This document shows positions 9,910 through 60,957 of a stretch of 64,000 nucleotides of DNA, in pieces. The notes under the pieces were generated by a model. It saw nothing but the letters and a program-made list of their open reading frames with translations. It was not told where the DNA came from and searched no databases. This DNA is from Candidatus Nomurabacteria bacterium (GTDB lineage Bacteria > Patescibacteriota > Patescibacteriia > HK-STAS-PATE-3): positions 32,001-96,000 of the forward strand of contig CP060223.1 in assembly GCA_023898465.1 (NCBI GenBank), read 5' to 3'. The position numbers were made by a program, and so were the translations under genes. Each line of letters starts with the position of its first letter. Positions within the stretch are counted from its first letter, which is position 1.

Positions 9910-9940
9910 GAGTACAAGCAAGCAATAAGGAGGTGTACTC

Positions 9941-18893: not shown

Positions 18894-18895
18894 GG

Positions 18896-21445: not shown

Positions 21446-21460
21446 TCAACGAAGGAGGTC

Positions 21461-23862: not shown

Positions 23863-23902
23863 CACACCAAGGCTGGGATGCCTTGGCTAGTTGTTATTAC
23901 CT

Positions 23903-23930
23903 TGAAATTCAGGCCATTTTTTGCTATACT
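23903..23930 (+). promoter_or_regulatory. promoter TTGAAA-16-TATACT
   Basis: ttgaaattcaggccattttttgctatact lies just upstream of the 23940 ATG. Confidence 0.45.
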
Positions 23931-23939
23931 GCACCTACC

Positions 23940-39380: not shown

Positions 39381-40311
39381 AGGGAGAACGTCTTCTACCT
39401 TGTCGCTATTGATGAAGGAACAATGTGAACTACGACAACTATGCTGCAGTCGCTTTCACTGCCACGACCCCCGCTCCTGCCATCCCCACCGGCCTCATCA
39501 TTACCGATGCCTCGAACCGAGAAACTGAAGACTACTCTATTGCCTTGAAGTGGAAAGCAGTGACCACTGAACAAGCCGGTAGCCTGGAAGATGACGCGGT
39601 GACCTACGAGATTCTCCGTTCCACTGATGGAGACAGCTTCTCCACCGTGGCCAACATTACCTCGACTGGCTACCTGGACGTCGATCTCGACAATACGACG
39701 GAGTATTACTACCAAGTGAAAGCCAAAGACTCCGCCGGCGCTGCTTCAGCTCCTTCGACCACCGTCTCAGATATCCCTGAGGGGAGATATACCACTCCAC
39801 CGGAGATTACCAAAGCCCCCCACGTTACTCCTTCCAGCTTCTCAGCCAAGGTAGAGTGGAGTACTGGACGGCCAACTACCTCCTTTGTTCAATTTGGCAC
39901 TAACCCCGCCTCATTAACAGAAGAGCAGGGTACTTCAAACCTTATCGCTGACCACGAGGTAACCATTGAGGGTTTGCAGCCTGAAACTACGTATTCATAT
40001 AGAGTAAAAAGTGTTGATGTGGATGGAAACATTTCACATTCAAGTGTTGCTACATTTACCACCCAGGCTGCTCCACGTGTTTCAAATGTAGGCATCAGCG
40101 ACGTACGTTTATTTGATGCTCTCATTAGCTGGGAAACAAATAAAGCGACCACAACTTCACTTGAGTATGGCACCACCACGAACTATGGTACAACGGTGAG
40201 CGATGCAACAGGATCAACTACCACATCTCATTTATATAAGTTAGAGAATTTGCAAGATGACACGCTCTACCATCTTCGTTTCCGTGGCGTTGATGCAGAA
40301 GGGACGCAAGT

Positions 40312-40999
40312 TAGTTCCGACGACTACACCTTCACCACCCTGACTTTCCCCCGGGTCGAGAACATCACCTGGGCTAATCAAGCCGAAGGCGAGACCGAAG
40401 TGCAATGGACTACGAATGTCCCCACCACCTCCCAAGTGGAATATTACAACGAAACTACTCCAGCCAAGACCCAAGGTAATACGGTCCTGACCACGGAACA
40501 CTCCGTCCTCCTCTTTGGCCTCGACGATGCCACCATTTACCAATTCCAAGTCCGAGGCACTGACCAATTTGGCTACGAAGCCATCTCAGATGAGCAAGAG
40601 TTCCGTACCCTGGAAGATACTACCCCTCCAGTCGTGAGTAATGTGCAGGTAGAGTCCAATACCATTGGCTCAGGTGAGCTCTCTCGTGTGCAGATCATTG
40701 TCCGCTGGACCACCAATGAGCCTACCTCTTCTCAAGTCCGCTTTGGTGAAGGAAATAACCTTTCCTCTGAATCAGATGTGAACCCAGAGTTAGTCTATGA
40801 TCACCTCCTTGTCGTCTCAGACCTAGAACCAGCGAGAACCTACAATATTCAAGCTATTGCCGTCGACAAAGCAGGGAATAGTACTGACTCTGATACCTAC
40901 CGAGTGCTTACCACCCGTCGGAGAGATTCCTTCCTCCAACTGGTCATTGGCAACCTGGAAGACACCTTTGCCTGGTTTACTAATATTGGAGGACTCTGA
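40312..40999 (+). repeat. about 0.7-kb conserved C-terminal module (TLTFPRVENITWANQAEGETEVQWTTN...RRRDSFLQLVIGNLEDTFAWFTNIGGL), copy 1 of 4
   Basis: Near-identical DNA at 45306-45998, 50505-51180 and 55635-56318. The P1 version (35195-35854) is conserved only at protein level. Confidence 0.85.
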
Positions 41000-42245
41000 T
41001 GGCACGGACGATGAAACATTGGCATAGAGGTGCAAAGAAGCGACCAGCTCATCCAGCAACACGTACGAGCTATCGTCGAAAATATCGCCAGCAAGTAGGT
41101 ATCTCGATTGCGGTGTTTTCACTTTTCCTACTCACTATCTCGTCATTTATCCAGGCAGCCGCACCAGAAGCCACCTACGTTGAAGTAACTTCAGACGCGG
41201 ACTGGAACATGGGCACCTTGAGCGATGTTACGGTGAATAGTGGGAGTATTGAAATCTCTGGAGATGGGGGAGCAAACTGGATAGCAGAATCAGGATGGCA
41301 ATTGCGGCAAAAGATTACCTTTGATGCTTCTACGCTCACGACATCTCTGAGTTATTTTCCCATCATGGTGCATATTGATAATACAAATACGGATTTTTGG
41401 GCAGGAGCGGCAAGTCGTGACGAAGTACGCTTCGGTGATAGCGATGGTGCCGTTTTAGATTTTCATTTTGAAAAATTTGATCATACTGCCGATGATGCCA
41501 TTGCCTGGGTTGAAGTGCCAACGCTAACTAATGATTCTTCTGATCACATATATCTCTATTATGGACACGCTTCACCAGCTAACGGTGAAGATGAAGCGGG
41601 CACCTATGATAATGACGGAAATTTTGTTGGCGTTTGGCACATGGCAGAGACAAGTGGTACGTCATATGATTCTACAAGTAATAACGTTGACCTCACTCCT
41701 CGCAATGCACCAACCCAAGATGAAACTGGCAAGGTAAATGGAGGAGATGGCTTCACAGGAAACGGCGACGCGCTCCATAATCAAACGTCAAGTATCGTAT
41801 TTGGAAATAGTATTACTCTAGAAGGTTGGTTTAAGCGAACCGGATCCGGTACTGGGTCCGGAAGAATTTTAGAATTTTCCCTGGATGGCGACGCTGATAG
41901 CCACGCCTTAGCCGTCGATTCAGACGGTTCACTTCGAGCCTGGGTGCAATGTACGACTGGTCGAGTTGGCAGCGCTGATGATCCTACTGTATATGGTACA
42001 GGAACTTGGTATTACTTCGCTTACACCTATGACGGATCGATTGGTCGACTTTATGTGAATGGTGTTCAGAAAAAAACTGCAAGTGGATCTTGTGCAAATT
42101 TAGATGATGCAGGGGACACTATTCTTGGAGCAATTTCTGACCAGAGCGGTGCTTACTCCCTGCCGCAACATGAATTTGATGGATATTTAGATGAACATCG
42201 TGCTTCTGATGTAGCTCGATCAGCTGATTGGATTAAAGCTGCTTA

Positions 42246-43969
42246 TCTCTCCGAAACCGACACCCTCATCTCGACCTGGGGAAGTGAAGAATCCGCCCTC
42301 CAATCACCTGGCACTTACACCTCCCACAACCTTGATCTCCAGTATATCTACCAATGGGGAGACTGTGCCTCTGGCTGTAATGACTCTTCCACTGCCTTCA
42401 CTACCAACATCACGGTTCCCAGTAACACCTCAGTTCAGTTTGAACTCCGCCATTCAGCTGACGGCTCCACCAACTGGTCATCATGGACATCCCTGGCCAC
42501 CTACACCTCCTCTGGTACCAAAACGCTCACCCGAGGAGAGATGGTCACCCTCGTAGGCGATATCTTCAATCGTTATGTCCAAACCAGAATTACCCTCAGC
42601 TCCTCAGATGGCAGTAGTAATCCTTCCATCGCTGACTACCGCTACGACTACACCAGAGAAACTGATCCCCCCAGTAATCCCAACACCCAGAATGGCTATG
42701 CCTCGAATGGAGGAGCAGCCATTACTTCAGGTAATTGGTACAACCATCCTGCTCCCTACTTCACCTGGAGTGGAGCCAGTGATACTGATGCTGGTATGTC
42801 CGGAGGCTACTCCGGCTACTGGGTCTGCTTTGGCACCTCATCCTGTGAACCTACCTCTGGTACCTTTGTGTCTTCCGCTGCCTACACGGCTGGGAGTCTC
42901 ACTACCAATACGACCTACTACCTCCGCATCAAAGCGAGAGATGCTGCCGGCAATGTGGCCACCTCAGCCTACGATGCCTTTACCTACAAATACGACGCCA
43001 CCCCACCAGCCAATCCCTCTGGTATCCTGCCTGATCCGGCTGGCTTTACCAATGTGAATGACTTTGACTTCACCTGGAATACCGGCTCCGATGCGGGTGG
43101 CTCTGGTATTGCTGAATACTGCTACAAGACCGGAGAAGACGGCTATGTCGAAACCTGTACCGCCTCCACCTCAGTCACGGGTATTACTGCCTACCAAGAA
43201 GGAGCCAATATCTTTTACGTGAGAAGTAAAGATATCGCTGGCAACCTTCCCACCTTCTACACCCAGGTGTCCTACTACTACTCGGCCAATGCTCCTTCAC
43301 CACCGCAGGGACTTGCGGTTGATCCGACCGAGAACACGGCGAACTCCTTTACCTTTACCTGGCTTGCTCCCGCCTCCTACTCCAACCCGATTGCCACCTA
43401 CCATTACTCGGTGAATGCCTTACCCACGGCAAGTAACACGACCGCAACGACCAACCTCAGTGTCGGTCCTGGTGCCTTTGCCACCCAACAAGGCACGAAC
43501 ATCTTCTATGTCGTCGCCAAAGACACCGCTGGCAACGTGGAATGGGACTCCTACGCTGCAGTTGAGTTCACCGCCAATACCACTGCTCCAGGTATTCCAA
43601 CTGGTGTGACCCTGACCGACTCATCCATTCGGGCCCAGAACAAGTATTCCCTCACCCTCACCTGGGATGCTCCAGAGAACGAAGGCTCAGGTATTGATCA
43701 CTACGTCATTGACCGCTCAACCACTATCGGCTGCAGTGATGGTTCAGGTACCTGGGTCCAGCATGCCACCACCACCGCTGAAGGCTACTTTGATCCGAAT
43801 CTTTCCAATACCACCACCTACTGCTACCGCGTGAAGGCAGCCGACAATGCCGGAGCCCAATCCGCCACCTCCTCTATTGTCTCCATGCGTCCAGAAGGCC
43901 GCTTCACTGAACCCCCAGAACTCATTGGTTCCCCAGGGGTTGAAGCCTACATCCAGTCGGCGACTATTG
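42246..43969 (+). repeat. shared stalk module, copy in P3
   Basis: Identity to the P4 copy begins about 40 nt further upstream (ctctccgaaaccgacaccctcatctcgacctgggg) than identity to P2. It diverges from P2/P4 after 43969 into an AT-richer version of the same protein domains. Confidence 0.85.
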
Positions 43970-45305
43970 AATGGTTAACAGATCGTGAGGCGAATTCATT
44001 TGTTGAATTCGGAGTAGCGTCTGACACTTTGGACCGAATTATGGGACAGGACGATTTCGTTTCCTCGCATACAGTACAATTATTGGATCTAGAGCCTGCC
44101 ACAACATATTATTATCGAACCAAGCATACTGATCAGGATAGCAATACTGGTTACTCTACAATTTTGTCATTTTCAACGGCGGACGCCCTCTGCTCCAACA
44201 AATTTGACCGTGAGCCCAGAAAGCAACACACGCAATTCATTTACTTTTTCATGGGATGCGCCAAGTGATGAAGGAGTAGATGCAGGGATATTTCTACAGT
44301 ATTAATGACGTGCCAACTAGTACAAACACTTCCTTCACTACGCAAACTGAATTAGGTCCAGGTGCATATGCTAGCCGGCAGGGTGAAAATGTGTTTTATG
44401 TAGTAGCGATCGATGATGCAAATAATATTAATTATAGTAATTACGCAAGTATTTCATTTAGTGCTGAAACCCCCGCTCCTGCCATCCCCACCGGCCTCAT
44501 CATTACCGATGCCTCGAACCGAGAAACTGAAGACTACTCTATTGCCTTGAAGTGGAAAGCAGTGACCACTGAACAAGCCGGTAGCCTGGAAGATGATGCG
44601 GTGACCTACGAGATTCTCCGTTCCACTGATGGAGACAGCTTCTCCACCGTGGCCAACATTACCTCGACTGGCTACCTGGATGTCGATCTCGACAATACGA
44701 CGGAGTATTACTACCAAGTGAAAGCCAAAGACTCCGCCGGCGCTGCTTCAGCTCCTTCGACCACCGTCTCAGATATCCCTGAGGGGAGATATACCACTCC
44801 ACCGGAGATTACCAAAGCCCCCCACGTTACTCCTTCCAGCTTCTCAGCCAAGGTAGAGTGGAGTACTGACCGTGATGCTGATTCCCACGTAGAATATGGC
44901 AGCACCTCAGATCTCACTGAAGAGCAAGGGACGATTGATGAAACTGATGAACATAGCATCCAACTCGAAGGACTCCAACCAGAAACGACCTATTACTACC
45001 GCATTCGTTCACGTGACCAAGATGGCAATGTAGCCCTCTCGAGCATCACTACCTTTACTACCTTGGAGGCACCGAGGGTGTCAAACGTAAAGATAAGCGA
45101 CATTCGTTTATTTGATGCTTTTCTTACTTGGGATACGAATGTTGCTTTAACTACTGAACTTGAGTATGGCATTTCTACAAATTACGGAACCATTGTGAGT
45201 GATGCCACAGCCTCAAGAACAACCAGCCACACGGTAAGACTGCAAAACCTCACTGATGGTACACTTTACCACTTACGTTTACGAGGAACAGATAGTGAAG
45301 GAAAC

Positions 45306-45998
45306 TTACTTTTGTCCGACGACTACACCTTCACCACCCTGACCTTCCCCCGGGTCGAGAACATCACCTGGGCTAATCAAGCCGAAGGCGAGACCGAAGT
45401 GCAATGGACTACGAATGTCCCCACCACCTCCCAAGTGGAATATTACAACGAAACGACTCCAGCCAAGACCCAAGGTAATACGGTCCTGACCACGGAACAC
45501 TCCGTCCTCTCCTCTTTGGCCTCGACGATGCCACCATTTACCAATTCAAGTCCGAGGTACTGACCAATTTGGCTACGAAGCCATCTCAGATGAGCAAGAG
45601 TTCCGTACCCTGGAAGATACTACCCCTCAGTCGTGAGTAATGTGCAGGTAGAGTCCAATACCATTGGCTCAGGTGAGCTCTCTCGTGTGCAGATCATTGT
45701 CCGCTGGACCACCAATGAGCCTACCTCTTCCCAAGTCCGCTTTGGTGAAGGAAATAGCCTTTCCTCTGAATCAGATGTGAACCCAGAGTTAGTCTATGAT
45801 CACCTCCTTGTCGTCTCAGACCTAGAACCAGCGAGAACCTACAATATTCAGGCTATTGCCGTTGACAAAGCAGGGAATAGTACTGACTCTGATACCTACC
45901 GAGTGCTTACCACCCGTCGGAGAGATTCCTTCCTCCAACTGGTCATTGGCAACCTGGAAGACACCTTTGCCTGGTTTACCAATATTGGGGGGTTGTAG
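45306..45998 (+). repeat. conserved C-terminal module, copy 2 (carries indels)
   Basis: tccgtcctctcctctttgg has 2 extra nt relative to the other copies. caattcaagtcc and tacccctcagtcgtg each lack one C. Confidence 0.8.
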
Positions 45999-47423
45999 CA
46001 TAGAGAAAGTTGAAGAAGTTTTAGGAATTTCCTGATTTGACTAAATCAAGGAAAAATTTTACAATATAACAACAAAAAATAATTTTAATTTGCGAAATTA
46101 AGGATTTTGGCTTGAAGATTAGCCAAAAAATTTTTTTCGGGGAAGAGAAAAAGAGCCAAGGCTCAAATATCTCAAGCACGAAAAAAACAAGACTTCAAAG
46201 CTATCTAACTGGTAGCATGCTTCATAGAAAAGAAAAAAACCAGGCAACTCTGCGCGTGGTTTTTTTGTGCTGACAAAAAAATATCGCCTGCAGTCAGTCA
46301 TCTCGGTAATGCTTGCCATTACTTTAGGTTTCGGCATTTTTTGCAGTTTAATGCAATTGCCGCTCCACCAGAAGCCACTTACATTGAAGTAACTTCAGAC
46401 GCAGACTGGAACATGGGCACCTTTTGAGCGATGTTACAGTGAATAGCGGGAGTATTGAGATCTCCGGAGATGGGGGAGCGAACTGGATAGCAGAGTCTGG
46501 CTGGCAATTCAGACAGCAATTGACCTTTGATGCATCTTCATTAAGTGCTCCAGTCGCCAATATGCCGATTATGGTGCATATCAGTGCATCCAACACTGAC
46601 TACTGGGGCGAAGTGACCTCAAGAGATGAAACCCGTTTCGGCGATAGCGATGGTACGGCTTTAGACTTTCATTTTGAGAAATTTGATGATGCCAATGATG
46701 ATGCGATTGCCTGGGTAGAAGTGCCTCAGGTTGATAATGCTGATACCGACTCCATCTATCTTTACTATGGAAATGATGCGGCAACGAATGGTGAAGATGG
46801 GGCGGGCACCTATGATAATGATGGGAATTTTCAGGGTGTATGGCACATGAATAATGCAACCAGCACCACAATCAGCGATAGTACTGGACATGGTTATACC
46901 GGTACAAAGGGTGCGAGCACGGCTGCCCCAACTCAGGTCAACGGACAAATTGGTTATGCACAATCTTTCGACGGCGGTGACTATATTGATTTTGGCAACG
47001 TTCTTAATCCAGGAAGTAATGATTGGACTGTAGAAATTTGGTTTAAAACAACTTCAAATGGGAGTCCTAGTTCACGAATTCTCTATAATAAAGAGAATTT
47101 GTACGAGGCTGCGGCAGCCGGAAGTTCTTACCACGACTACGCCTGGCAGCCGCACTGGGCTTGGGATGGAGGAACTGCTTTTTCCGTTACAAATAATGTT
47201 TGGCATTTGTCTGGGACGACATACGATAAGTCCAAGCAACGTTTATATAAGAATGGTGTCCTTGTGTACAACCGGGACCAGGGTGGCGTCATGGGGACAA
47301 CCACTTCACGCTTACAATTTGGCGCCCGAGGAGATACTGGGCACTCATCTTTTTATATTGGAGAGATTGATGAAGTGCGCATGTCGAGTACGGCTCGGAG
47401 CGCAGACTGGTTAGCCTTAGCGC

Positions 47424-49410
47424 ATCTCTCCGAAACCGACACCCTCATCTCGACCTGGGGAAGTGAAGAATCCGCCCTCCAATCACCTGGCACTTACACC
47501 TCCCACAACCTTGATCTCCAGTATATCTACCAATGGGGAGACTGTGCCTCTGGCTGTAATGACTCTTCCACTGCCTTCACTACCAACATCACGGTTCCCA
47601 GTAACACCTCAGTTCAGTTTGAACTCCGCCATTCAGCTGACGGCTCCACCAACTGGTCATCATGGACATCCCTGGCCACCTACACCTCCTCTGGTACCAA
47701 AACGCTCACCCGAGGAGAGATGGTCACCCTCGTAGGCGATATCTTCAATCGTTATGTCCAAACCAGAATTACCCTCAGCTCCTCAGATGGCAGTAGTAAT
47801 CCTTCCATCGCTGACTACCGCTACGACTACACCAGAGAAACTGATCCGCCCAGTAATCCCAACACCCAGAATGGCTATGCCTCGAATGGAGGAGCAGCCA
47901 TTACTTCAGGTAATTGGTACAACCATCCAGCTCCCTACTTCACCTGGAGTGGCGCCAGTGATACTGATGCTGGTATGTCCGGAGGCTACTCCGGCTACTG
48001 GGTCTGCTTTGGCACCTCATCCTGTGAACCTACCTCTGGTACCTTTGTGTCTTCCGCTGCCTACACGGCTGGGAGTCTCACTACCAATACGACCTACTAC
48101 CTCCGCATCAAAGCGAGAGATGCTGCCGGCAATGTGGCCACCTCAGCCTACGATGCCTTTACCTACAAATACGACGCCACCCCACCAGCCAATCCCTCTG
48201 GTATCCTGCCTGATCCGGCTGGCTTTACCAATGTGAATGACTTTGACTTCACCTGGAATACCGGCTCCGATGCGGGTGGCTCTGGTATTGCTGAATACTG
48301 CTACAAGACCGGAGAAGACGGCTATGTCGAAACCTGTACCGCCTCCACCTCAGTCACGGGTATTACTGCCTACCAAGAAGGAGCCAATATCTTTTACGTG
48401 AGAAGTAAAGATATCGCTGGCAACCTTCCCACCTTCTACACTCAGGTGTCCTACTACTACTCGGCCAATGCCCCTTCACCACCCCAGGGACTTGCGGTTG
48501 ATCCTACCGAGAACACGGCGAACTCCTTTACCTTTACCTGGCTACTTCCCGCCTCCTACTCCAACCCGATTGCCACCTACCACTACTCGGTGAATGCCTT
48601 ACCCACGGCAAGTAACACGACCGCAACGACCAACCTCAGTGTCGGTCCTGGTGCCTTTGCCACCCAACAAGGCACGAACATCTTCTATGTCGTCGCCAAA
48701 GACACGGCTGGCAACGTGGAATGGGACTCCTACGCTGCAGTTGAGTTCACTGCCAATACCACTGCTCCAGGTATTCCAACTGGTGTGACCCTGACCGACT
48801 CATCCATTCGGGCCCAGAACAAGTATTCCCTCACCCTCACCTGGGATGCTCCAGAGAACGAAGGCTCAGGTATTGATCACTACGTCATTGACCGCTCAAC
48901 CACTATCGGCTGCAGTGATGGTTCAGGTACCTGGGTCCAGCATGCCACCACCACCGCTGAAGGCTACTTTGATCCGAATCTTTCCAATACCACCACCTAC
49001 TGCTACCGCGTGAAGGCAGCCGACAATGCCGGAGCCCAATCCGCCACCTCCTCTATTGTCTCCATGCGTCCAGAAGGCCGCTTCACTGAACCCCCAGAAC
49101 TCATTGGTTCCCCAGGGGTTGAAGCCTACATCCAGTCGGCCACCGTCGAGTGGCTGACTGATCGCGAAGGCAGCTCCTTTGTGGAGTTTGGCACGTCCTC
49201 AGATACTCTTGATCGTGTCATGGGCCAAGATGACTTTGTGACCAGTCACAGCGTCACCCTCCTCGACCTTGATCCGGCTACTACCTACTACTATCGTACG
49301 AAATACACTGACCAAGACAGTAATACCGGCTATTCTTCAGTCCTCTCCTTTACCACTGCTGATGCACCGTCAGCTCCGACCAACCTCAGTGTGGACCCAG
49401 AGAGTAATAC
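47424..49410 (+). repeat. shared stalk module, copy in P4
   Basis: Near-identical to the P2 and P3 copies, with scattered synonymous differences (for example ccagc/ccggc). Confidence 0.85.
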
Positions 49411-50504
49411 CCAGAAACTCCTTTACCTTTGCCTGGGATCCCCCAGTGATGCTGGAGTCACTATTCAAGGCTACTTCTACAGTGTGAATGATGTCCCCCA
49501 CCAGTACGAATACCTCCCTTCACTGCTCAGCAAGAGCTTGGCCCTGGCGCATATGCCACGAGACAAGGGAGAACGTCTTCTACCTTGTCGCTATTGATGA
49601 AGCGAACAATGTGAACTACGACAACTATGCTGCAGTCGCTTTCACTGCCACGACCCCTGCTCCTGCCATCCCCACCGGCCTCATCATTACCGATGCCTCG
49701 AACCGAGAAACTGAAGACTACTCTATTGCCTTGAAGTGGAAAGCAGTGACCACTGAACAAGCCGGTAGCCTGGAAGATGATGCGGTGACCTACGAGATTC
49801 TCCGTTCCACTGATGGAGACAGCTTCTCCACCGTGGCCAACATTACCTCGACTGGCTACCTGGATGTCGATCTCGACAATACGACGGAGTATTACTACCA
49901 AGTGAAAGCCAAAGACTCCGCCGGCGCTGCTTCAGCTCCTTCGACCACCGTCTCAGATATCCCTGAGGGAGATATACCACTCCACCGGAGATTACCAAAG
50001 CCCCCACGTTACTCCTTCCAGCTTCTCAGCCAAGGTAGAGTGGAGTACTGACCGTGATGCTGATTCCCACGTAGAATATGGCAGCACCTCAGATCTCACT
50101 GAAGAGCAAGGGACGATTGATGAAACTGATGAACATAGCATCCAACTCGAAGGACTCCAACCAGAAACGACCTATTACTACCGTATTCGTTCACGTGACC
50201 AAGATGGCAATGTAGCCCTCTCGAGCATCACTACCTTTACTACCTTGGAGGCACCGAGGGTGTCGGATGTGGTCATTTCTGATATCAAACTTTACGATGC
50301 GCTTATTGCGTGGAAAACAAACAAGGCAACAACAACGGTTTTGGAATATGGTACGACTGAGCAATACGGCCAAAGTCTCGCAGATACTTCTGGGTCCCTT
50401 ACCACGAACCATATTGTGAAGCTTGATAGCTTAACCGATGATACACTGTATCATTTCCGTCCTACTGGTTTCGACGAGAGCGGGAATGCTCCAGAGAGTA
50501 GCGA

Positions 50505-51180
50505 CTACACCTTCACCACCCTGACCTTCCCCCGGGTCGAGAACATCACCTGGGCTAATCAAGCCGAAGGCGAGACCGAAGTGCAATGGACTACCAATGT
50601 CCCCACCACCTCCCAAGTGGAATACTACAACGAAACTACTCCAGCCAAGACCCAAGGTAATACGGTCCTGACCACGGAACACTCCGTCCTTCTCTTTGGC
50701 CTCGACGATGCCACCATTTACCAATTCCAAGTCCGAGGCACTGACCAATTTGGCTACGAAGCCATCTCAGATGAGCAAGAGTTCCGTACCCTGGAAGATA
50801 CTACCCCCCCAGTCGTGAGTAATGTGCAGGTAGAGTCCAATACCATTGGCTCAGGTGAGCTCTCTCGTGTGCAGATCATTGTCCGCTGGACCACCAATGA
50901 GCCTACCTCTTCCCAAGTCCGCTTTGGTGAAGGAAATAACCTTTCCTCTGAATCAGATGTGAACCCAGAGTTAGTCTATGATCACCTCCTTGTCGTCTCA
51001 GACCTAGAACCAGCGAGAACCTACAATATTCAGGCTATTGCCGTTGACAAAGCAGGGAATAGTACTGACTCTGATACCTACCGAGTGCTTACCACCCGTC
51101 GGAGAGATTCCTTCCTCCAACTGGTCATTGGCAACCTGGAAGACACCTTTGCCTGGTTTACCAATATTGGGGGGTTGTGA
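50505..51180 (+). repeat. conserved C-terminal module, copy 3
   Basis: Intact frame; 99 % identical to copies 1 and 4. Confidence 0.85.
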
Positions 51181-54100
51181 TGAGTCGACGGATGCGACAT
51201 TTTAGCGTAGGACATAAAGGATTAACTCCGAGAGTAAGTCGGAAAAACTCACGTCATTCAAAATTATCACGATATAAGTCAAGATATCACGTTCAAGTTA
51301 TTCTCACCTTGACGGTTCTTGTTTTTGCTTCAGTGTTTGGGGTAGCTATTCCATACCTACAAGCGGTTCCAACAAATAATACCGAGACCTTTACGCTGAG
51401 TAGCGATTTTAGTGGAGGGGTATTAACTGATGTTGATGTGAGTAATGACGAAATTAAACTGTCTGGAGGAGCGGAAAATTGGTGGGACGCAAACTATCAA
51501 TATCGTCGACAACTTACGGTTACAAATGATTCTGCTGGAACTGCTGAAGTAGGCACAACAGCTACCATCAGCATTGATACTTCGGCGCTTGAGACAGCAG
51601 GGAAGTTGCGTTCAGATCGTAATGACTGGCGAGTAGTATATTGGAACGGCTCGAGTAATGAAGAGCTTGATCGTGTCTACGAAAGTACTAGTTCGACTGT
51701 TTTTGCTATTCAGGCCACTATCGCGGGAAGTGGTGGATCAAGTAGTGATTATTATGTGTACTACGGGTACTCAAGTGAGTCCTCAACTCCGCCAAGTACG
51801 GTGGGTAACGTAAAGACGGTACTCAGCATGCATACAACCGCTAACCAAGTTTTAACAAGTGGAGTTACAAACCTTGGTATTGCTACTGACGGTGACTACG
51901 TTTACATGTCAAATGGGTCTCAGTTATCAAAACTTAACCTTGATGGGTCATTAGTTGGCACTAAGACAGTGAGTATTGGTGGTGCAAATAGAGGACTCGG
52001 TTTTGCTGATGGACGGGTTATTGGTCGAGACTTAAGTAATAATCTTTATGCGTATGACTGGGATAGCTCAACATTATCTCCATTGAGTATTCCAGGTGGA
52101 CATCCACTTTTATCAGGTCAATCCTGGATGAATCATAATCTTGTGACTGATTCGAGCGATCGGATTGGTACCGTGCAGTATGCATCTGGCGGTATGATTC
52201 TGCGTCGCTACACTATTAGTGGTAACACGCTCACTTGGTTAGATGATATCACCCTAGGTGGAACCTATCACTCAGTAGATAATCATGGCTTTACTATGAG
52301 CAACGACTATCTCGTAATGGTGAGTTATAGTGATGGATGGCGACGATGGAGCTTGCCTGATGGTACAGAGGAAGTTGACTTTGGGAATTTTGGCGGGACT
52401 GGTACAAATACTGAAACTCACCCTAGTGGGATGTCGAATCCAACTTTTATTGATTATAACTGGAAGACCGGGGAAATATATCTTGGTGACTATAGTTCAG
52501 CTGAGTATTTTCGATATGCTAATGAAGCTTTAGTTACTTCTCCTACTTTATCTGTTACTGATGGAGGTGAAGTTGGATCACTTACTCCTATTGGTACCTT
52601 TGCTTCAAATCAAACTGATACAGGGGATGACGCATTTATAAATCTTGCTCGCATCTTTGCCTGGGGGAGTGGTGGCGGTGATAGTGATACAGCATTTACC
52701 GCAAACGTAACGATGAGCGATCCTTCTCATTCGACACTTAGCTTTGAGCTACGTAGTGCTTCATCTATTGCTAATCTAGCGTCAGCAACATATTACTCAC
52801 TTGGCTCGCCAACGAGCTCTGGTGCATATACGCTGACCAAAGGACAGATGGATGCTTTAAATAGTGGAAGCGGGGTTTTACCCTCCAGTGTGAATAAGTA
52901 TTTTCAGTTACGCATTTCATTTACCTCAAGTGATGGCTTAGCCAACCCTTCAGTGCAGGATTTTGCTTTTCATTATCAGGAAGACAACGACGCCCCATCA
53001 CCACCATCGCCGGTTAACGGAGCTGGGTATGATGAAGAGGGTGGAGATGTCATCTCTCAAACTACCTGGTATAACTACCCAACTCCATACTTTACTTGGG
53101 ATGATGCCATAGATGGAGATTCTAGTATTGATGGGTATTATGTTTGCTTTGGAACTAGCAGTTGCGATCCAAGCGCTGGTTCCTATGTGACTACTGCAGA
53201 GTATACTGCAGTGTCGTTAACAAGCAATCAAAAGTATTCTTTACGAGTGAAGGCTCGTGACACTGCTGGGAATGTTTCTGCAACCTTCTCGGTATTTGAA
53301 TATTGGTACGACGCCACCCCACCAGCCAATCCCTCTGGTATCCTGCCTGATCCGGCTGGCTTTACCAATGTGAATGACTTTGACTTCACCTGGAATACCG
53401 GCTCCGATGCGGGTGGCTCTGGTATTGCTGAATACTGCTACAAGACCGGAGAAGATGGCTATGTCGAAACCTGTACCGCCTCCACCTCAGTCACGGGTAT
53501 TACTGCCTACCAAGAAGGAGCCAATATCTTTTACGTGAGAAGTAAAGATATCGCTGGCAACCTCCCCACCTTCTACACCCAGGTCTCTTACTACTACTCT
53601 GCCAATGCGCCTTCACCACCGCAAGGACTCGAGGTGGACCCCACAGAGAACACGGCCAACTCCTTTACCTTTACCTGGCTACTTCCCGCCTCCTACTCCA
53701 ATCCGATTGCCACCTACCATTACTCGGTAAATGCCTTACCCACGGCAAGTAACACGACCGCAACGACCAACCTCAGTGTCGGTCCTGGTGCCTTTGCCAC
53801 CCAACAAGGCACGAACATCTTCTATGTCGTCGCCAAAGACACGGCTGGCAACGTGGAATGGGACTCCTACGCTGCAGTTGAGTTCACCGCCAATACCACT
53901 GCTCCAGGTATTCCAACTGGTGTGACCCTGACAGACTCATCCATTCGGGCCCAGAACAAGTATTCCCTCACCCTCACCTGGGATGCTCCAGAGAACGAAG
54001 GCTCAGGTATTGATCACTACGTCATTGACCGCTCAACCACTATCGGCTGCAGTGATGGTTCAGGTACCTGGGTCCAGCATGCCACCACCACCGCTGAAGG

Positions 54101-56318
54101 CTACTTTGATCCGAATCTTTCCAATACCACGACCTACTGCTACCGCGTGAAGGCAGCCGACAATGCCGGAGCCCAATCAGCGACCTCTTCTATTGTTTCC
54201 ATGCGTCCAGAAGGCCGCTTCACTGAACCCCCAGAACTCATTGGCTCCCCAGGGGTTGAGGCCTACATCCAGTCGGCCACCGTCGAGTGGCTGACTGATC
54301 GCGAAGGCAGCTCCTTTGTGGAGTTTGGCACTGCTGCAGATACCCTTGATCGCATCATGGGCCAAGATGACTTTGTGACGAGTCACAGTGTCACCCTCCT
54401 CGATCTTGAGCCAGCCACCACCTACTACTATCGTACGAAATACACTGACCAAGACAGTAATACCGGCTATTCTTCAGTCCTCTCCTTTACCACTGCTGAT
54501 GCACCGTCAGCTCCGACCAACCTCAGTGTGGACCCAGAGAGTAATACCCGAAACTCCTTTACCTTTGCCTGGGATCCCCCCAGTGATGCTGGAGTCACTA
54601 TTCAAGGCTACTTCTACAGTGTGAATGATGTCCCCACCAGTACGAATACCTCCTTCACTGCTCAGCAAGAGCTTGGCCCTGGCGCATATGCCACGAGACA
54701 AGGGGAGAACGTCTTCTACCTTGTCGCTATTGATGAAGCGAACAATGTGAACTACGACAACTATGCTGCAGTCGCTTTCACTGCCACGACCCCCGCTCCT
54801 GCCATCCCCACCGGCCTCATCATTACCGATGCCTCGAACCGAGAAACTGAAGACTACTCTATTGCCTTGAAGTGGAAAGCAGTGACCACTGAACAAGCCG
54901 GTAGCCTGGAAGATGACGCGGTGACCTACGAGATTCTCCGTTCCACTGATGGAGACAGCTTCTCCACCGTGGCCAACATTACCTCGACTGGCTACCTGGA
55001 CGTCGATCTCGACAATACGACGGAGTATTACTACCAAGTGAAAGCCAAAGACTCCGCCGGCGCTGCTTCAGCTCCTTCGACCACCGTCTCAGATATCCCT
55101 GAGGGGAGATATACCACTCCACCGGAGATTACGAAGGGTCCAAATGTAACCCCGGATTCATTTGAAGCAGGCATTGCCTGGGAAACCGATCGAGACGCAG
55201 ACTCGCATGTTGAGTACGGGACGAATTCTTCTTTAGGGGAGGAACAGGGTACAATCGATGAGACTGACGATCATTCCGTCCAACTCGAAGGACTCCAACC
55301 AGAAACGACTTATTACTATCGCATTCGTTCACGTGACCAAGATGGCAATGTAGCCCTCTCGAGCATCACTACCTTTACTACCTTGGAGGCACCTTTTGTT
55401 TCTGAAGTGCTTGTCTCAGATATTCGCCTCTATGATGCATATATTAATTGGACAACAAATAAAGCGACCACAACTTCACTTGAGTATGGTACTACGACTG
55501 GTTATGGACAGACTATTACTGACACTTCAGGATCACTCACAACAACCCATACCGTACATTTAGAGAATTTAACTGACGATACCACATACAATTTTAAGCC
55601 AACAGGAGTGGATATTACTGGCAATAACCCGGCGAGTGGTAACTACACCTTCACCACCCTGACCTTCCCCCGGGTCGAGAACATCACCTGGGCTAATCAA
55701 GCCGAAGGCGAGACCGAAGTGCAATGGACTACCAATGTCCCCACCACCTCCCAAGTGGAATATTACAACGAAACTACTCCAGCCAAGACCCAAGGTAATA
55801 CGGTCCTGACCACGGAACACTCCGTCCTTCTCTTTGGCCTCGACGATGCCACCATTTACCAATTCCAAGTCCGAGGCACTGACCAATTTGGCTACGAAGC
55901 CATCTCAGATGAGCAAGAGTTCCGTACCCTGGAAGATACTACCCCTCCAGTCGTGAGTAATGTGCAGGTAGAGTCCAATACCATTGGCTCAGGTGAGCTC
56001 TCTCGTGTGCAGATCATTGTCCGCTGGACCACCAATGAGCCTACCTCTTCCCAAGTCCGCTTTGGTGAAGGAAATAACCTTTCCTCTGAATCAGATGTGA
56101 ACCCAGAGTTAGTCTATGATCACCTCCTTGTCGTCTCAGACCTAGAACCAGCGAGAACCTACAATATTCAGGCTATTGCCGTTGACAAAGCAGGGAATAG
56201 TACTGACTCTGATACCTACCGAGTGCTTACCACCCGTCGGAGAGATTCCTTCCTCCAACTGGTCATTGGCAACCTGGAAGACACCTTTGCCTGGTTTACC
56301 AATATTGGGGGGTTTTAA
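51180..56318 (+). CDS. giant surface protein P5 (about 1710 aa): intact. Basic N-terminus plus TM, DUF2341-like segment, propeller-like region, shared Fn3-like stalk and conserved tail
   Basis: GTGATG start overlaps the P4 stop. WWDANYQYRRQLTVTNDSAGTAEVGTTATISIDTSALETAGKLRSDRNDWRVVYWNGSSNEELDRVYE is DUF2341-like. A single uninterrupted 1713-codon frame. Ends ...RRRDSFLQLVIGNLEDTFAWFTNIGGF. Confidence 0.8.
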   Translation: MSRRMRHFSVGHKGLTPRVSRKNSRHSKLSRYKSRYHVQVILTLTVLVFASVFGVAIPYLQAVPTNNTETFTLSSDFSGGVLTDVDVSNDEIKLSGGAENWWDANYQYRRQLTVTNDSAGTAEVGTTATISIDTSALETAGKLRSDRNDWRVVYWNGSSNEELDRVYESTSSTVFAIQATIAGSGGSSSDYYVYYGYSSESSTPPSTVGNVKTVLSMHTTANQVLTSGVTNLGIATDGDYVYMSNGSQLSKLNLDGSLVGTKTVSIGGANRGLGFADGRVIGRDLSNNLYAYDWDSSTLSPLSIPGGHPLLSGQSWMNHNLVTDSSDRIGTVQYASGGMILRRYTISGNTLTWLDDITLGGTYHSVDNHGFTMSNDYLVMVSYSDGWRRWSLPDGTEEVDFGNFGGTGTNTETHPSGMSNPTFIDYNWKTGEIYLGDYSSAEYFRYANEALVTSPTLSVTDGGEVGSLTPIGTFASNQTDTGDDAFINLARIFAWGSGGGDSDTAFTANVTMSDPSHSTLSFELRSASSIANLASATYYSLGSPTSSGAYTLTKGQMDALNSGSGVLPSSVNKYFQLRISFTSSDGLANPSVQDFAFHYQEDNDAPSPPSPVNGAGYDEEGGDVISQTTWYNYPTPYFTWDDAIDGDSSIDGYYVCFGTSSCDPSAGSYVTTAEYTAVSLTSNQKYSLRVKARDTAGNVSATFSVFEYWYDATPPANPSGILPDPAGFTNVNDFDFTWNTGSDAGGSGIAEYCYKTGEDGYVETCTASTSVTGITAYQEGANIFYVRSKDIAGNLPTFYTQVSYYYSANAPSPPQGLEVDPTENTANSFTFTWLLPASYSNPIATYHYSVNALPTASNTTATTNLSVGPGAFATQQGTNIFYVVAKDTAGNVEWDSYAAVEFTANTTAPGIPTGVTLTDSSIRAQNKYSLTLTWDAPENEGSGIDHYVIDRSTTIGCSDGSGTWVQHATTTAEGYFDPNLSNTTTYCYRVKAADNAGAQSATSSIVSMRPEGRFTEPPELIGSPGVEAYIQSATVEWLTDREGSSFVEFGTAADTLDRIMGQDDFVTSHSVTLLDLEPATTYYYRTKYTDQDSNTGYSSVLSFTTADAPSAPTNLSVDPESNTRNSFTFAWDPPSDAGVTIQGYFYSVNDVPTSTNTSFTAQQELGPGAYATRQGENVFYLVAIDEANNVNYDNYAAVAFTATTPAPAIPTGLIITDASNRETEDYSIALKWKAVTTEQAGSLEDDAVTYEILRSTDGDSFSTVANITSTGYLDVDLDNTTEYYYQVKAKDSAGAASAPSTTVSDIPEGRYTTPPEITKGPNVTPDSFEAGIAWETDRDADSHVEYGTNSSLGEEQGTIDETDDHSVQLEGLQPETTYYYRIRSRDQDGNVALSSITTFTTLEAPFVSEVLVSDIRLYDAYINWTTNKATTTSLEYGTTTGYGQTITDTSGSLTTTHTVHLENLTDDTTYNFKPTGVDITGNNPASGNYTFTTLTFPRVENITWANQAEGETEVQWTTNVPTTSQVEYYNETTPAKTQGNTVLTTEHSVLLFGLDDATIYQFQVRGTDQFGYEAISDEQEFRTLEDTTPPVVSNVQVESNTIGSGELSRVQIIVRWTTNEPTSSQVRFGEGNNLSSESDVNPELVYDHLLVVSDLEPARTYNIQAIAVDKAGNSTDSDTYRVLTTRRRDSFLQLVIGNLEDTFAWFTNIGGF
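53300..55140 (+). repeat. shared stalk module, copy in P5
   Basis: tacgacgccaccccaccagccaatccctctggtatcctgcc onward matches P2 37990, P3 42990 and P4 48170. Confidence 0.85.
55635..56318 (+). repeat. conserved C-terminal module, copy 4
   Basis: Intact frame. Confidence 0.85.
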
Positions 56319-56367
56319 GAATTCTTTAATCTATGGTATAGTATTCAAGTAAAAAATACAGACCGAC

Positions 56368-57090
56368 ATGGCTGAGCAAAGCAGAAAAAAACCGATTATC
56401 GAACTCAAAAATATTATCAAAGAATTCCGAGTGGGGAAGAATACGATTCGTGTCCTTAAAGATATTAACGCACGAATTGAACCACAGGAGTTTATCATTA
56501 TTCTCGGACCATCTGGATCAGGAAAGTCGACGCTTTTGAATACCATAATTGGTTTAGAGCGCCCCACCTCCGGTCAAGTTTTGGTTGCGAATGAAGATCT
56601 CACTACACTCAGCTCTGATAAGTTGGCAGCTTTTCGTTTACAGAATTACGGCGTGGTATACCAGCGTCCTGACTGGATAAAAGCTTTGAATATCGTACAA
56701 AATGTAGCCTTTCCTTTAGCTATTGCAAATCATTCCATGACAGAAGCAATTCCTAAGGCAATCGAACTTCTAAAGCGCTTTGGTATGGACGATCATGCTG
56801 AATATGCGCCAAGCGAACTCTCTGGTGGACAACAACAGAAGTGCGAAATTGCTCGATCCTTAATAATGGATCCAGACATTGTTATTGCTGACGAGCCTAC
56901 AGGAAACCTGGATACTGATTCAGCTGAGCGCGTGATGAATATATTTACCGAATTGCGAGAAAAGGATAAGAAAACTGTAATCATGGTTACTCATAACATT
57001 GAATATGTTCGCTATGCGACCCATACTATTTATGTACGAGATGGTCGTGTATTAGAAGGTGAACAATCATTCGGCACAAAGAAGAAGTAG
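56368..57090 (+). CDS. ABC transporter ATP-binding protein, MacB/LolD/FtsE-like
   Basis: Walker A GPSGSGKST, ABC signature LSGGQQQK, Walker B IVIADEPTGNLD and H-loop VTHN. Confidence 0.9.
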   Translation: MAEQSRKKPIIELKNIIKEFRVGKNTIRVLKDINARIEPQEFIIILGPSGSGKSTLLNTIIGLERPTSGQVLVANEDLTTLSSDKLAAFRLQNYGVVYQRPDWIKALNIVQNVAFPLAIANHSMTEAIPKAIELLKRFGMDDHAEYAPSELSGGQQQKCEIARSLIMDPDIVIADEPTGNLDTDSAERVMNIFTELREKDKKTVIMVTHNIEYVRYATHTIYVRDGRVLEGEQSFGTKKK

Positions 57091-57093
57091 AGT

Positions 57094-58314
57094 ATGAAGT
57101 TTAGCTATATTGCTTTTCTCTCAACACAAAATTTGCGCAAACGTAAGCTGCGTAGCTTTTTGACAATTGGAGGTATGGCAATCGGTATCAGCTCAATTGT
57201 TTTCTTGGTTTCGCTTGGTTTTGGCTTACAGCGCCTCATTACCTCACAGGTAACTAATCTGGAAGCGCTTACCATACTTGATGTAAGTACCGGCACCTCA
57301 ACCTTGCTACAAATTGATGATGATCGCATTGCTGGCTTTAAAGAGATTCCTCACGTGCTTGATGTAAGTCCCTCGTACAGTATTTCTGGTCAGGTAGCCT
57401 ATACCGGGTCAGTCACTGATATTGCCATGTTTGGCATTCAACCGGAGTATGTAGGGCTAGAAGGTATAACACCGGCTTTTGGTCGAGTTTTTTCAATCCC
57501 TGATGGCAATGAAACAGTTATTAGCACTACGGCAGCTGAATTGCTTGGTGTTGAGGACTTTGCTTCTTTAATTGGCAAAACAGTTACGTATAGCGTTTCA
57601 GTAGAGCAAACGACTGATGAGAATGGCGCACCACTTGATCCAAATCTACCCCCACCGGCCCCTGAAGTAGTTGATTTTGATGTGGAGGTCATTGGAGTCG
57701 TGGATGATGAATTAACTCTAGCGTATTTACCTATTAGCATCTTGGAAATTACGCAACCAGAAAATTATGATTTAGCGCGCGTAAAAGTAGATAATAGAGA
57801 TAATCTGGTCGGTGTCCGCCAAGAAATTGAAGGGCTAGGGTATCAAGTTGATTCAGTGGCTGATACTGTTGGTCAGATTGATCGTATCTTCCTGGTCTTT
57901 GAAATAGTCATGGCTGGATTTGGCTTTATTGCCATGTTGGTCGCATCCTTGGGCGCATTTAACACCTTAACCGTTTCTTTACTTGAACGTACGCGTGAAG
58001 TAGGAATCATGAAGGCGTTAGGCACACCGAGTAAGGATGTGTACCGACTTTTCTTGAGCGAGTCATTTTTGATTGGATTTTCAGGTGGAAGCTTGGGAAT
58101 ATTAATAGGATATTCCTTAGGTGAAATTGCCAACGTGGTAGTAAATTATTTGGCGAATCGTTATGGTGGTCAATCAGTTGATATTTTCTTCACTCCATTT
58201 TTGCTCATTGTTGTCATTTTCTCAATTATCGTGTTGGTGAGTTTCTTGACTGGTGTTTATCCTGCTCGTCGTGCGTCTAAACTCAATCCTTTGGACGCTC
58301 TGCGCTACGAATAA
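57094..58314 (+). CDS. ABC transporter permease, FtsX-like (MacB-type: N-terminal TM, periplasmic domain, three C-terminal TM helices)
   Basis: LRSFLTIGGMAIGISSIVFLVSLG N-terminal TM and a C-terminal FtsX domain (...RTREVGIMKALGTPSKDVYRLFLSESFLIGF...). The ATG is 4 nt after the ATPase stop. Confidence 0.85.
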   Translation: MKFSYIAFLSTQNLRKRKLRSFLTIGGMAIGISSIVFLVSLGFGLQRLITSQVTNLEALTILDVSTGTSTLLQIDDDRIAGFKEIPHVLDVSPSYSISGQVAYTGSVTDIAMFGIQPEYVGLEGITPAFGRVFSIPDGNETVISTTAAELLGVEDFASLIGKTVTYSVSVEQTTDENGAPLDPNLPPPAPEVVDFDVEVIGVVDDELTLAYLPISILEITQPENYDLARVKVDNRDNLVGVRQEIEGLGYQVDSVADTVGQIDRIFLVFEIVMAGFGFIAMLVASLGAFNTLTVSLLERTREVGIMKALGTPSKDVYRLFLSESFLIGFSGGSLGILIGYSLGEIANVVVNYLANRYGGQSVDIFFTPFLLIVVIFSIIVLVSFLTGVYPARRASKLNPLDALRYE

Positions 58315-59856: not shown

Positions 59857-60957
59857 ATGGGAAACGTACTCGTGGTTGGGACGGGAACGATCGGCAAGCC
59901 GCTCATCGGTTTGCTCACCAAGAGAATGGAAGGTCTTGGTATCAGTCAGGTTGCTTTTCACAAGCGGACTCCGCAAGCCGATACCACGCCTTCGATTCGT
60001 CGACTAGTTGATCGTGGTGCGCTCTTGGTCTGTGATGAAGAGGCGAGGGATGATTTCCATCGCTATGGCCTGGAGCCGCAGATGACGCGCGATGAGGCGT
60101 TAGCCTGGGCTGACGTGGTGATAGACTGCACGCCAGCCGGCAACGCACACAAGACTGGTCGAGCGGTGAACAAGAAGGGTGTGGTGGTTGAGTGCCCACC
60201 CTGGTATCCAGCCCACGAAGACAGTACCCTCGGCTTCATCGCCCAGGGTTCAGAAGAGGGCTTTGGCCAGCCTTTTGCGTTGGACATCAACAACGAACAG
60301 GTTGATCCGAACGCACACAAGTACGTCCAGGTTGTGTCGTGTAACACGCATAACCTCCTCGTGCTACTTGATCTCTTCGGGAAGCTCGGAGTGGGCAGGA
60401 TCAAGGGTCGTTTCGTGATGATTCGCCGCGCGACGGACATCAGTCAACCGGACAATGTTTCTGCTCCCAAGGTCGATAAGCACAAGGAGCTTCGGGGCGA
60501 TCGACACTTCGGTACACACCACGCCTACGATGCTTGGCGGGTTCTTCAGACCATGGGCGTTGATTACGACCTGTTTTCTTCAGCACTGCAGACACCGACC
60601 CAGTACATGCATGTCTTGCATTTCTTCCTCGAGGTTGAGCGTCCACCGAGTCATGAAGAAATCATCGCAGCAATTCGCGAGCGTCCTCTCGTGGCAACTA
60701 CTGAGTACTGCAACACGGGACAGGCCTTCTCGGAAGCGCGCGACGACGGGTTCTACGGTCGAGTACTCGACCAGACGGTCATTCCAGTGAAGACCTTGGT
60801 AGTGAACGGGAATGAGATCACTGGTTTCGCGTTCACTCCGCAGGACGGCAACAGTCTGCTCTCAACCGCAGCGGCGGCTGCACGCTTCCTCGATCCAGTT
60901 GGTTGGAGAGATCGGATCACTAACTGTTTCGGGAAGTACATGTTCGACGAGGTCTGA
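59857..60957 (+). CDS. archaeal-type (type II) glyceraldehyde-3-phosphate dehydrogenase-like enzyme
   Basis: MGNVLVVGTGTIGKPL NAD-binding start. Active-site region YVQVVSCNTHNL resembles the type II GAPDH VVSCNTTGL motif. 366 aa. The gene is visibly GC-richer than its flanks. Confidence 0.6.
   Translation: MGNVLVVGTGTIGKPLIGLLTKRMEGLGISQVAFHKRTPQADTTPSIRRLVDRGALLVCDEEARDDFHRYGLEPQMTRDEALAWADVVIDCTPAGNAHKTGRAVNKKGVVVECPPWYPAHEDSTLGFIAQGSEEGFGQPFALDINNEQVDPNAHKYVQVVSCNTHNLLVLLDLFGKLGVGRIKGRFVMIRRATDISQPDNVSAPKVDKHKELRGDRHFGTHHAYDAWRVLQTMGVDYDLFSSALQTPTQYMHVLHFFLEVERPPSHEEIIAAIRERPLVATTEYCNTGQAFSEARDDGFYGRVLDQTVIPVKTLVVNGNEITGFAFTPQDGNSLLSTAAAAARFLDPVGWRDRITNCFGKYMFDEV

Follow-up and report, generated by a model that had tools for sequence, protein, structure and literature searches.

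We analyzed a 64,000-nucleotide stretch of DNA from a Candidatus Nomurabacteria bacterium (positions 32,001 to 96,000 of contig CP060223.1; hereafter the window), in which the plus strand from 27.3 to 58.3 kb carries five paralogous large-protein genes (P1 to P5), followed by the gene of an ATP-binding cassette (ABC) ATPase and then by that of a permease (Table 1). Our subject is the short tail at the C-terminus of these giant proteins and its association with the ABC pair. All five giants end in this tail, P1 included, as an earlier note on this DNA had stated: the window holds exactly five copies, every one running into its stop codon. P1 closes with VLTSRSRDSFLQLIIANLEDTFAWLGNLTPG, P2, P3, and P4 close with VLTTRRRDSFLQLVIGNLEDTFAWFTNIGGL, and P5 with NIGGF, the tails of P2 to P5 following the consensus TTRRRDSFLQLVIGNLEDTFAWFTNIGG(L/F). 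At the other end, the N-termini of the giants show a net charge of +10 to +20 over 45 residues and then a hydrophobic segment of 20-27 residues that often ends in AAP or AxA. Such very long and extremely basic regions ahead of a single hydrophobic segment (27332-27560, 35992-36260, 40999-41160, and 51177-51370 in the window) recur in many loci, and a Y-R-x-K-Y-x-x-Q motif recurs immediately ahead of the segment in DUF2341-type members.

The ABC ATPase and MacB/FtsX-like permease that had been placed at the end of the locus were recovered by Pfam as ABC_tran and as MacB_PCD plus FtsX, with both permease matches above their cut-offs, the MacB_PCD part forming the extracytoplasmic domain after the first helix and the FtsX part lying C-terminally. 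The ATPase contains Walker A (GPSGSGKST), signature (SGGQQQ), and Walker B (IADEPT) motifs, and its gene ends 3 nucleotides before the permease start. Only 49 nucleotides separate the P5 stop from the ATPase ATG; we found no terminator-like site in this gap, and a weak promoter-like match lies at 56315-56342. Among solved structures, the best relative of the permease was Bacillus subtilis YtrF (9o9x; E = 5e-51), which aligned over the full length (profile positions 1-399), followed by MacB (5gko; E = 4e-39), Spr0695-type proteins, and LolF, LolC, and LolE (E = 1e-21 to 3e-14). Scores against the NCBIfam models of the named subfamilies fell well short: 185.8 against a cut-off of 264.85 for FtsE, 35-37.5 against 225-255 for the FtsX models, 210.5 against 307.75 for LolD, 75.8 against 362.45 for lolCE, and far below the equivalog cut-off for MacB. 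Neither the window nor the gene-listed neighborhoods contained a Pfam family of membrane-fusion adaptors or outer-membrane channels of the kind found in MacAB-TolC, and the tail loci whose called genes were listed contained no LolA or TesA-like gene. With the domain layout of the permease, an adjacent cognate ATPase with its motifs, and full-length similarity to solved members, the pair is assigned by sequence to the type VII ABC systems (MacB/FtsX superfamily), within the MacB/YtrF/LolC family. Some permease homologues bear the name 'antimicrobial peptide transport system' in Joint Genome Institute (JGI) annotation, and in distant members (L034 5195-6553, L036 8503-9849, L091 5420-6742, and the P0016 contig) the linked ATPase is 441-470 residues long and has a C-terminal extension of ~220 residues without a Pfam match.

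Table 1. Features of the window (positions in nucleotides, counted from its first base; lengths in amino acids, aa; ORF, open reading frame).
Feature	Position	Strand	Description
P1	27332-35854	+	intact ORF, 2840 aa; Pfam Kelch, fn3, Pur_ac_phosph_N; N-terminal basic region, then hydrophobic segment; tail at C-terminus
P1 tail	35765-35851	+	TSRSRDSFLQLIIANLEDTFAWLGNLTPG; stop 35852-35854
P2	35992-40999	+	DUF2341/Fn3 paralogue; ORF pieces 35992-39528, 39425-40999; frame-disrupted; tail-ended
P2 tail	40910-40996	+	stop ends 40999
P3	40999-45998	+	DUF2341/LamG/Fn3; ORF pieces 40999-44268, 44280-45563, 45633-45998; frame-disrupted; tail-ended
P3 tail	45909-45995	+	stop ends 45998
P4	46424-51180	+	DUF2341/LamG/Fn3; ORF pieces 46424-49597, 49488-50051, 50245-51180; frame-disrupted; tail-ended
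P4 tail	51091-51177	+	stop ends 51180
P5	51177-56318	+	intact, 1713 aa; basic N-terminal region, one hydrophobic segment, Fn3 repeats, tail
P5 tail	56229-56315	+	TTRRRDSFLQLVIGNLEDTFAWFTNIGGF; basic linker and predicted alpha-helix SFLQLVIGNLEDTF; stop ends 56318
ABC ATPase	56368-57090	+	240 aa; MacB/LolD/FtsE-like type; PF00005 ABC_tran, 109 bits
Permease	57094-58314	+	406 aa; PF12704 MacB_PCD, residues 21-247 (71.8 bits); PF02687 FtsX, residues 276-399 (78.3 bits)
PilB/PilT-like region	16846-19945		T2SSE ATPase (18896-19945, minus strand), neighbored by genes for a cNMP-binding/GAF protein and a tyrosine recombinase
Four consecutive ORFs	20335-23757	+	194, 202, 450, and 314 aa
NHL/FG-GAP/TIG protein	23883-27185		1100 aa; ordinary signal peptide; no tail
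Glyceraldehyde-3-phosphate dehydrogenase homologue	59857-60957		archaeal-type (type II)

Within the array, neighboring genes overlap by 1-4 nucleotides (P2/P3 and P4/P5), the P3 start overlapping the P2 stop by 1 nucleotide. Over their 3' 0.7-3.7 kb, P2 to P5 share a mutual DNA identity of 86-99%, and parts of the DUF2341/LamG array are 97-99% identical to one another. Hence, four of the five tails are recent copies, and only the comparison of P1 with the rest is independent. P1 and P5 alone are intact ORFs, as three of the five giant genes (P2, P3, and P4) are broken, in comparison with P5, by indels of 1-2 nucleotides that fall mostly in homopolymer runs of G or C (44184-45628 in P3, 49413-49999 in P4). 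P2 has single-base deletions at 39382 and 39418, the first of which is a G deletion found identically in P4 (49567). The breaks could represent pseudogenes, slipped-strand on/off switches, or assembly errors in the repeat; a UGA-recoded genetic code was considered as their cause and rejected, because they are frame shifts relative to P5 and not in-frame stops. The real start of P4 probably lies upstream of 46424. Blocks with a GC content of ~0.53 and a GC skew of ~-0.2 (38000-40000, 42000-44000, 48000-50000, and 54000-56000) match the shared Fn3-rich 3' halves of P2 to P5.

A C-terminal tail beyond the last Fn3 domain

Within the last 115 residues, the Pfam fn3 and Pur_ac_phosph_N envelopes reach only to residue ~81-87, at '...YRVLT', and the tail lies beyond this point. 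Upon modeling these 115 residues with AlphaFold2 from an 18-sequence alignment, as the earlier note had proposed for the C-terminus, we obtained an Fn3 domain at residues 13-86 with a predicted local distance difference test score (pLDDT) above 90, after which come a basic linker and, at residues 94-107, a separate helix (SFLQLVIGNLEDTF). Because the Fn3 envelopes stop before the tail and a helix is predicted there, the tail is, according to this model, a distinct C-terminal element and not the last strand of the Fn3 domain. The claim that it resembles no known sorting signal also held up: searched alone against Pfam and NCBIfam at E up to 10, the tail matched no model, including any sorting-signal model. 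The fixed C-terminal module consists of the last Fn3 domain, a mostly basic linker of 5-7 residues, and an amphipathic helix of ~16 residues whose consensus reads S-[FVI]-[LIF]-Q-[LIV]-I-[IV]-x-N-[LF]-E-x-T-F-[GSA]-W.

This module marks a family that extends across many genomes. An exhaustive search of 1.84 billion representative proteins with a three-sequence tail profile gave 20 matches, 17 of them true (E = 1e-14 to 5e-4, well outside chance expectation) and 3 spurious; in the true matches the tail always lay within a few residues of the C-terminus, and the proteins measured 869-3315 residues, except for one 91-residue fragment at a contig end. A word-index search with a 46-residue tail alignment returned one match and later only short contig-end fragments, making it a poor gauge of breadth. 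Scanning a genome collection with one genome per species, seeded with 8 closer sequences, we obtained 30 tail loci, all of them in metagenome-assembled genomes (MAGs) of Patescibacteria, several of which are named Candidatus Kerfeldbacteria; one tail fragment came from Candidatus Magasanikbacteria. An iterated tail model applied to the fetched loci found 75 matches with 67 distinct tails, every one ending no more than 15 residues from the stop codon. Names in this group are uneven: the window permease matches, at 100% identity, a protein whose MAG is named 'Candidatus Nomurabacteria', its close relatives are labeled Kerfeldbacteria, several clearly patescibacterial contigs carry the label 'uncultured Gammaproteobacteria', and many contig-end fragments with the tail are presently named 'hypothetical' or misnamed.

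Members of the family range from ~505 residues, with Fn3 domains only, to ~3,300 residues. The smallest (~505-540 residues) consist of 4-5 Fn3 domains and the tail and nothing else, and the signal peptides of these small members are short, of the ordinary kind, and end in AxA-like sites. Across the family the head is variable (Kelch, DUF2341, LamG, LVIVD, or none), and the last Fn3 domain and the tail stay constant. In our best reading of these sequences, the tail would be the hallmark of a family of Patescibacteria surface proteins that are exported by Sec and built from a variable head, an Fn3 stalk, and a fixed C-terminal module.

The notion that the tail itself is under selection, which had been put forward from the five copies in the window, finds its support elsewhere. 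Between P1 and P5, 18 of 28 tail residues are identical with 6 synonymous changes, compared to 32 of 47 residues with 20 synonymous changes in the preceding Fn3 segment; as the tail is no better kept than the adjacent Fn3 domain, the window alone gives no proof of selection on it, and the evidence, strong at the level of sequence, comes from other genomes, with conservation at the C-terminus throughout the family. We also weighed the reading that the tail is simply the last strand of the Fn3 domain, or that its repetition merely reflects recent duplication. The four duplicate copies and the equal conservation of tail and Fn3 within the window agree with such a reading, but it is refuted, to the point of having hardly any probability left, by the Fn3 models that end before the tail, by the predicted helix, and by the identity of 24-73% among tails of many genomes that are always C-terminal and tightly linked to the ABC pair. 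Hence, neither part of the outcome that the earlier note had named as fatal to its idea, a mere Fn3 strand with no ABC co-occurrence, was found.

The residues that the helix conserves bear on what it may bind. Thirty diverse tails aligned with zero gaps, with S, Q, I, N, F, and W as the best-kept positions and S, Q, N, E, F, and W strongly conserved. On a helical wheel, the hydrophobic residues span an arc of ~200 degrees, with the conserved N and T inside it, and the conserved polar residues S, Q, N, E, and T lie within or beside this hydrophobic face, which argues for specific protein recognition over generic lipid binding. Mean Kyte-Doolittle hydrophobicity stays below 1 in any 18-residue window of the tail, which is thereby too polar to span the membrane as a helix; basic residues come ahead of the helix, and a conserved Trp lies near its end. 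Escherichia coli PBP5/6 have a C-terminal helix that lies in the outer leaflet of the membrane, and the tail might likewise be an autonomous amphipathic anchor in that leaflet, from which the ABC pair would extract the protein in the manner of LolCDE or YbbAP, or to which it would be only loosely related. The ~200-degree arc, the preceding basic residues, the Trp near the end, and a hydrophobicity too low for a membrane-spanning helix would all suit this reading, and type VII systems pull hydrophobic groups from the membrane, according to the available text of PMC12646458. This reading keeps some plausibility, yet we regard it as unlikely, since the gapless conservation of S, Q, N, E, F, and W in 30 tails exceeds what lipid binding needs and since the arc of hydrophobic residues includes a conserved N and a conserved T. 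Set beside a PBP5-like anchor, the tail is amphipathic but carries conserved polar residues.

Genetic linkage of tail genes to the ABC pair

Tail genes and the ABC pair are linked whichever of the two is used for the search, and the co-occurrence that the earlier note had suggested looking for was found in numerous divergent genomes, from either starting point and even with gene order rearranged. Starting from the tail (the 30 genome-collection loci together with contig look-ups, with the ABC pair not used as a query), we found the same pair of ATPase and MacB_PCD/FtsX permease immediately next to 27 of 41 tail genes. The ATPase starts 16-372 nucleotides downstream on the same strand in 26 of the 41, and the pair lies directly upstream in one, plus one contig without DNA. 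For nine tail genes the downstream neighbor was another large ORF, mostly the next paralogue of the array or a contig end, and other neighbors were seen for the remaining five. Furthermore, six genomes in which a tail locus lacks the pair have a second tail locus with it. Starting from the permease, we collected 80 metagenome loci with homologues at 33-55% identity, of which 49 were assessable; a tail gene was directly adjacent in 28 of these (25 upstream, 3 downstream). Two more had an adjacent giant with a degenerate tail, and in three more the order was ABC pair, TPR protein, and a giant that runs off the contig. Altogether, 42 non-redundant pairs of tail and permease were obtained. In a permease tree, the tail-linked loci span the whole tree, with the unlinked loci interspersed among them and forming no separate paralogue clade.

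General synteny does not account for this adjacency, as none of 15 other neighbor genes of the window that we checked recurs in more than three loci, while the linkage between tail and ABC pair survives reversed gene order and inserted genes. These results bear on a further alternative, namely that the helix is structural, capping the last Fn3 domain or bundling stalks into oligomers, with only an indirect link to an ABC pair retained there for some different purpose, such as wall remodeling or peptide resistance where the cell attaches. YtrEF does affect cell-wall thickness in B. subtilis (PMC8060467), the JGI name of some homologues hints at peptide resistance, and some permease loci have no tail gene nearby. 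We consider this alternative very unlikely all the same, because the linkage persists through gene-order reversal and insertions while other synteny is lost and because the AlphaFold2 model does not pack the helix confidently on the Fn3 domain. A functional coupling between the tail-bearing proteins and the ABC pair is well supported, and the association is robust, extends across many Patescibacteria lineages, and is directly testable.

The closest relative of the window cluster, locus L121, clarifies how the array arose. Its permease is 66% identical to that of the window, and its order (327-11230) is an NHL/FG-GAP protein, a tailed P1 orthologue of 2880 residues, and, directly after it, the ABC pair, indicating that P2 to P5 arose in the window as an expansion that came to lie between P1 and the pair. 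The sequences of P2 to P5 suggest that this was a recent expansion or gene conversion. In a CPR3 bacterium (L119), which belongs to a more distant lineage, the pair precedes a giant of at least 1675 residues that is cut by the contig end.

Several other genes accompany these clusters. A TPR protein of ~220 residues recurs in ABC/giant clusters of one sub-lineage (L048 11398-12078, L058 5170-5856, L061 10257-10919, and the P0016 contig), the gene after the permease in L003 encodes a CAP-domain protein, and in L119 a LysM protein is encoded ahead of the pair. In the window, the NHL/FG-GAP/TIG protein lies just upstream of P1, a position kept in L121 and L122. The glyceraldehyde-3-phosphate dehydrogenase homologue stands downstream of the cluster, and a gene of this archaeal type follows a tail-gene array without ABC pair in L001 (840-1919), L004, and L009 (10838-11899). 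The PilB/PilT-like T2SSE ATPase is syntenic with a tail locus in L005, L006, and L010. The four ORFs just upstream of the surface-protein cluster had no Pfam match, no NCBIfam match for the two largest (the only ones scanned), and no counterpart in the fetched loci.

A proposed docking role for the tail

We propose, with a probability of about 0.5, that the tail is a docking or anchoring helix through which the surface proteins are held by the neighboring type VII ABC complex. The tail proteins would be exported through their own N-terminal Sec-type signal or anchor, leaving the C-terminal helix as the cell-proximal docking or anchoring element. The helix might then be bound by the YtrEF/MacB-type complex, either by the extracytoplasmic domain of the permease or in a cavity at the membrane interface, and ATP hydrolysis in the cytoplasm could hold, move, or release the stalk outside the cell, an actuation analogous to that of FtsEX on EnvC or PcsB and of YbbAP with TesA. 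Several paralogues, five of them in the window, would share a single ABC pair. We infer the physical binding of tail and permease, the location of the tail outside the cell, the cleavage of the N-terminal signal, and any ATP-driven action. Three considerations favor docking: the mode of action known for the ABC family, the conserved polar residues of the helix, and the adhesin-like layout. From the signal through a variable head and a repeat stalk to the conserved C-terminal element, the architecture resembles that of wall-anchored adhesins, and the small members, whose signals look cleavable, would need other means of retention after cleavage. As for the mode of action, type VII systems do mechanical work at the outer face of the membrane and pass no protein through it, and they act with dedicated outer partners such as EnvC, LolA, MacA-TolC, and TesA, as far as the available text of PMC5985334, PMC12646458, and PMC7668044 describes them.

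The earlier note had instead guessed at a sorting or secretion signal served by a dedicated exporter or processing system. Read in this way, the tail would be an export, release, or processing signal by which the ABC pair moves the giants across or out of the envelope, after the model of C-terminal type 1 secretion signals or of MacAB-type expulsion from the periplasm. The C-terminal signal that looks uncleaved, the genes that adjoin an ABC system, and a layout like that of giant type 1 secretion adhesins speak for it, as does the export of the enterotoxin STII from the periplasm by MacB. (The last point follows the available text of PMC5985334.) We judge such a role distinctly unlikely, however: the giants have their own Sec-type N-terminal signal or anchor, and the type VII permease is of the four-helix MacB/YtrF fold family and not an HlyB-type exporter. 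The neighborhoods examined contain no membrane-fusion or outer-membrane partner gene and no conserved sortase-like enzyme, transpeptidase, or protease near the tail genes, the ABC pair being all that is conserved there. Docking, anchoring, or actuation fits this picture better than export or processing.

Several points weigh against docking. The pLDDT of the helix is only 53-59, leaving it not confidently packed on the Fn3 domain. In roughly one third of the permease-seeded loci that could be assessed, no tail gene lies close by, and some tail loci (L001, L004, L009, and L037) have no ABC pair within 8-10 kb. All linkage data are gene neighborhoods of related uncultured lineages, so that shared ancestry inflates the counts. 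If the N-terminal hydrophobic segment remains as an anchor, the tail would sit distally, at the far end of the protein. Finally, the function of YtrEF, the closest characterized homologue, is itself unknown (PMC8060467).

A large part of bacterial diversity belongs to the Patescibacteria (Candidate Phyla Radiation, CPR), which live attached to other cells. We know of no account of how their giant surface proteins are retained and used. As a short tag that can be searched for, the tail singles out one class of these proteins and is useful for annotation, and its conserved partnership identifies an ATP-driven envelope machine at their side. The literature searched, in which subscription journals are poorly covered, contained no description of the tail or of its link to the ABC pair, and does describe large CPR surface proteins and YtrEF. 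More tentatively, with the odds somewhat against it, the arrangement may represent a system, widespread in Patescibacteria, for anchoring or actuating surface proteins, in which a C-terminal tag of a new kind is recognized by a YtrEF/MacB-type mechanotransducer and not by a sortase-like enzyme. The binding of tail and permease on which the proposed docking depends can be tested with peptides and a recombinant membrane complex, with no need for culture. If it holds, it would widen the range of objects on which type VII ABC systems act and would provide a first partner class for the enigmatic YtrEF-like branch, a functional lead in single-membrane bacteria. ATP hydrolysis inside tiny episymbiotic cells would then hold, move, or release giant host-contact proteins outside them.

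Comparison with known systems

Like FtsEX with EnvC, PcsB, CwlO, or RipC, the window pair combines an ATPase with a four-helix FtsX-domain permease that has a large outer domain, and FtsEX grips a helical element of its dedicated outer partner without transport, according to the available text of PMC7668044, PMC11491553, and PMC10694151. It differs from FtsEX in scoring far below the NCBIfam FtsE and FtsX cut-offs, in having MacB_PCD as outer domain, in having several paralogous partners per pair, and in the nature of these proposed partners, which would be Fn3-stalk surface proteins held through a C-terminal helix and not coiled-coil proteins that activate wall hydrolases. The solved structure nearest to the permease is that of YtrEF from B. 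subtilis (YtrBCDEF operon; PDB 9o9x and 9o9y), which likewise has separate genes for ATPase and permease and comes from a single-membrane host; no tail-bearing Fn3 partner has been described for YtrEF, whose partner is unknown (PMC8060467). MacAB-TolC, LolCDE, and YbbAP-TesA are of the same fold family and, in the available text of PMC5985334 and PMC12646458, act on substrates from the outer face of the membrane with a dedicated partner. They differ from the pair described here in that the loci examined contain no MacA-like adaptor and no TolC, LolA, or TesA-like gene, and the NCBIfam Lol and MacB scores miss the cut-offs by a wide margin.

The giant adhesins of type 1 secretion are similar in being giant repeat proteins with a C-terminal recognition element and an ABC system alongside. 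They have no N-terminal Sec signal and use an HlyB-type exporter, a fusion protein, and an outer-membrane channel, in contrast to the Sec-type N-termini of the tail proteins and the MacB-type permease next to them, which place the system described here outside that class. With LPXTG/sortase, PEP-CTERM/exosortase, GlyGly-CTERM/rhombosortase, and PGF-CTERM/archaeosortase, the tail shares the form of a short signature at the extreme C-terminus of paralogous surface proteins, a layout of signal, head, stalk, and tag, and a genetic link between the tag and a dedicated membrane machine. Unlike those signals, which consist of a signature, a transmembrane helix, and a terminal basic cluster, the tail has no stretch of transmembrane grade and carries its basic residues ahead of the helix, and the linked machine is an ABC complex and not a transpeptidase or protease. 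Overall, the arrangement would be best described as a type VII ABC system that works with an extracytoplasmic partner dedicated to it, having the flavor of a new class of C-terminal tag.

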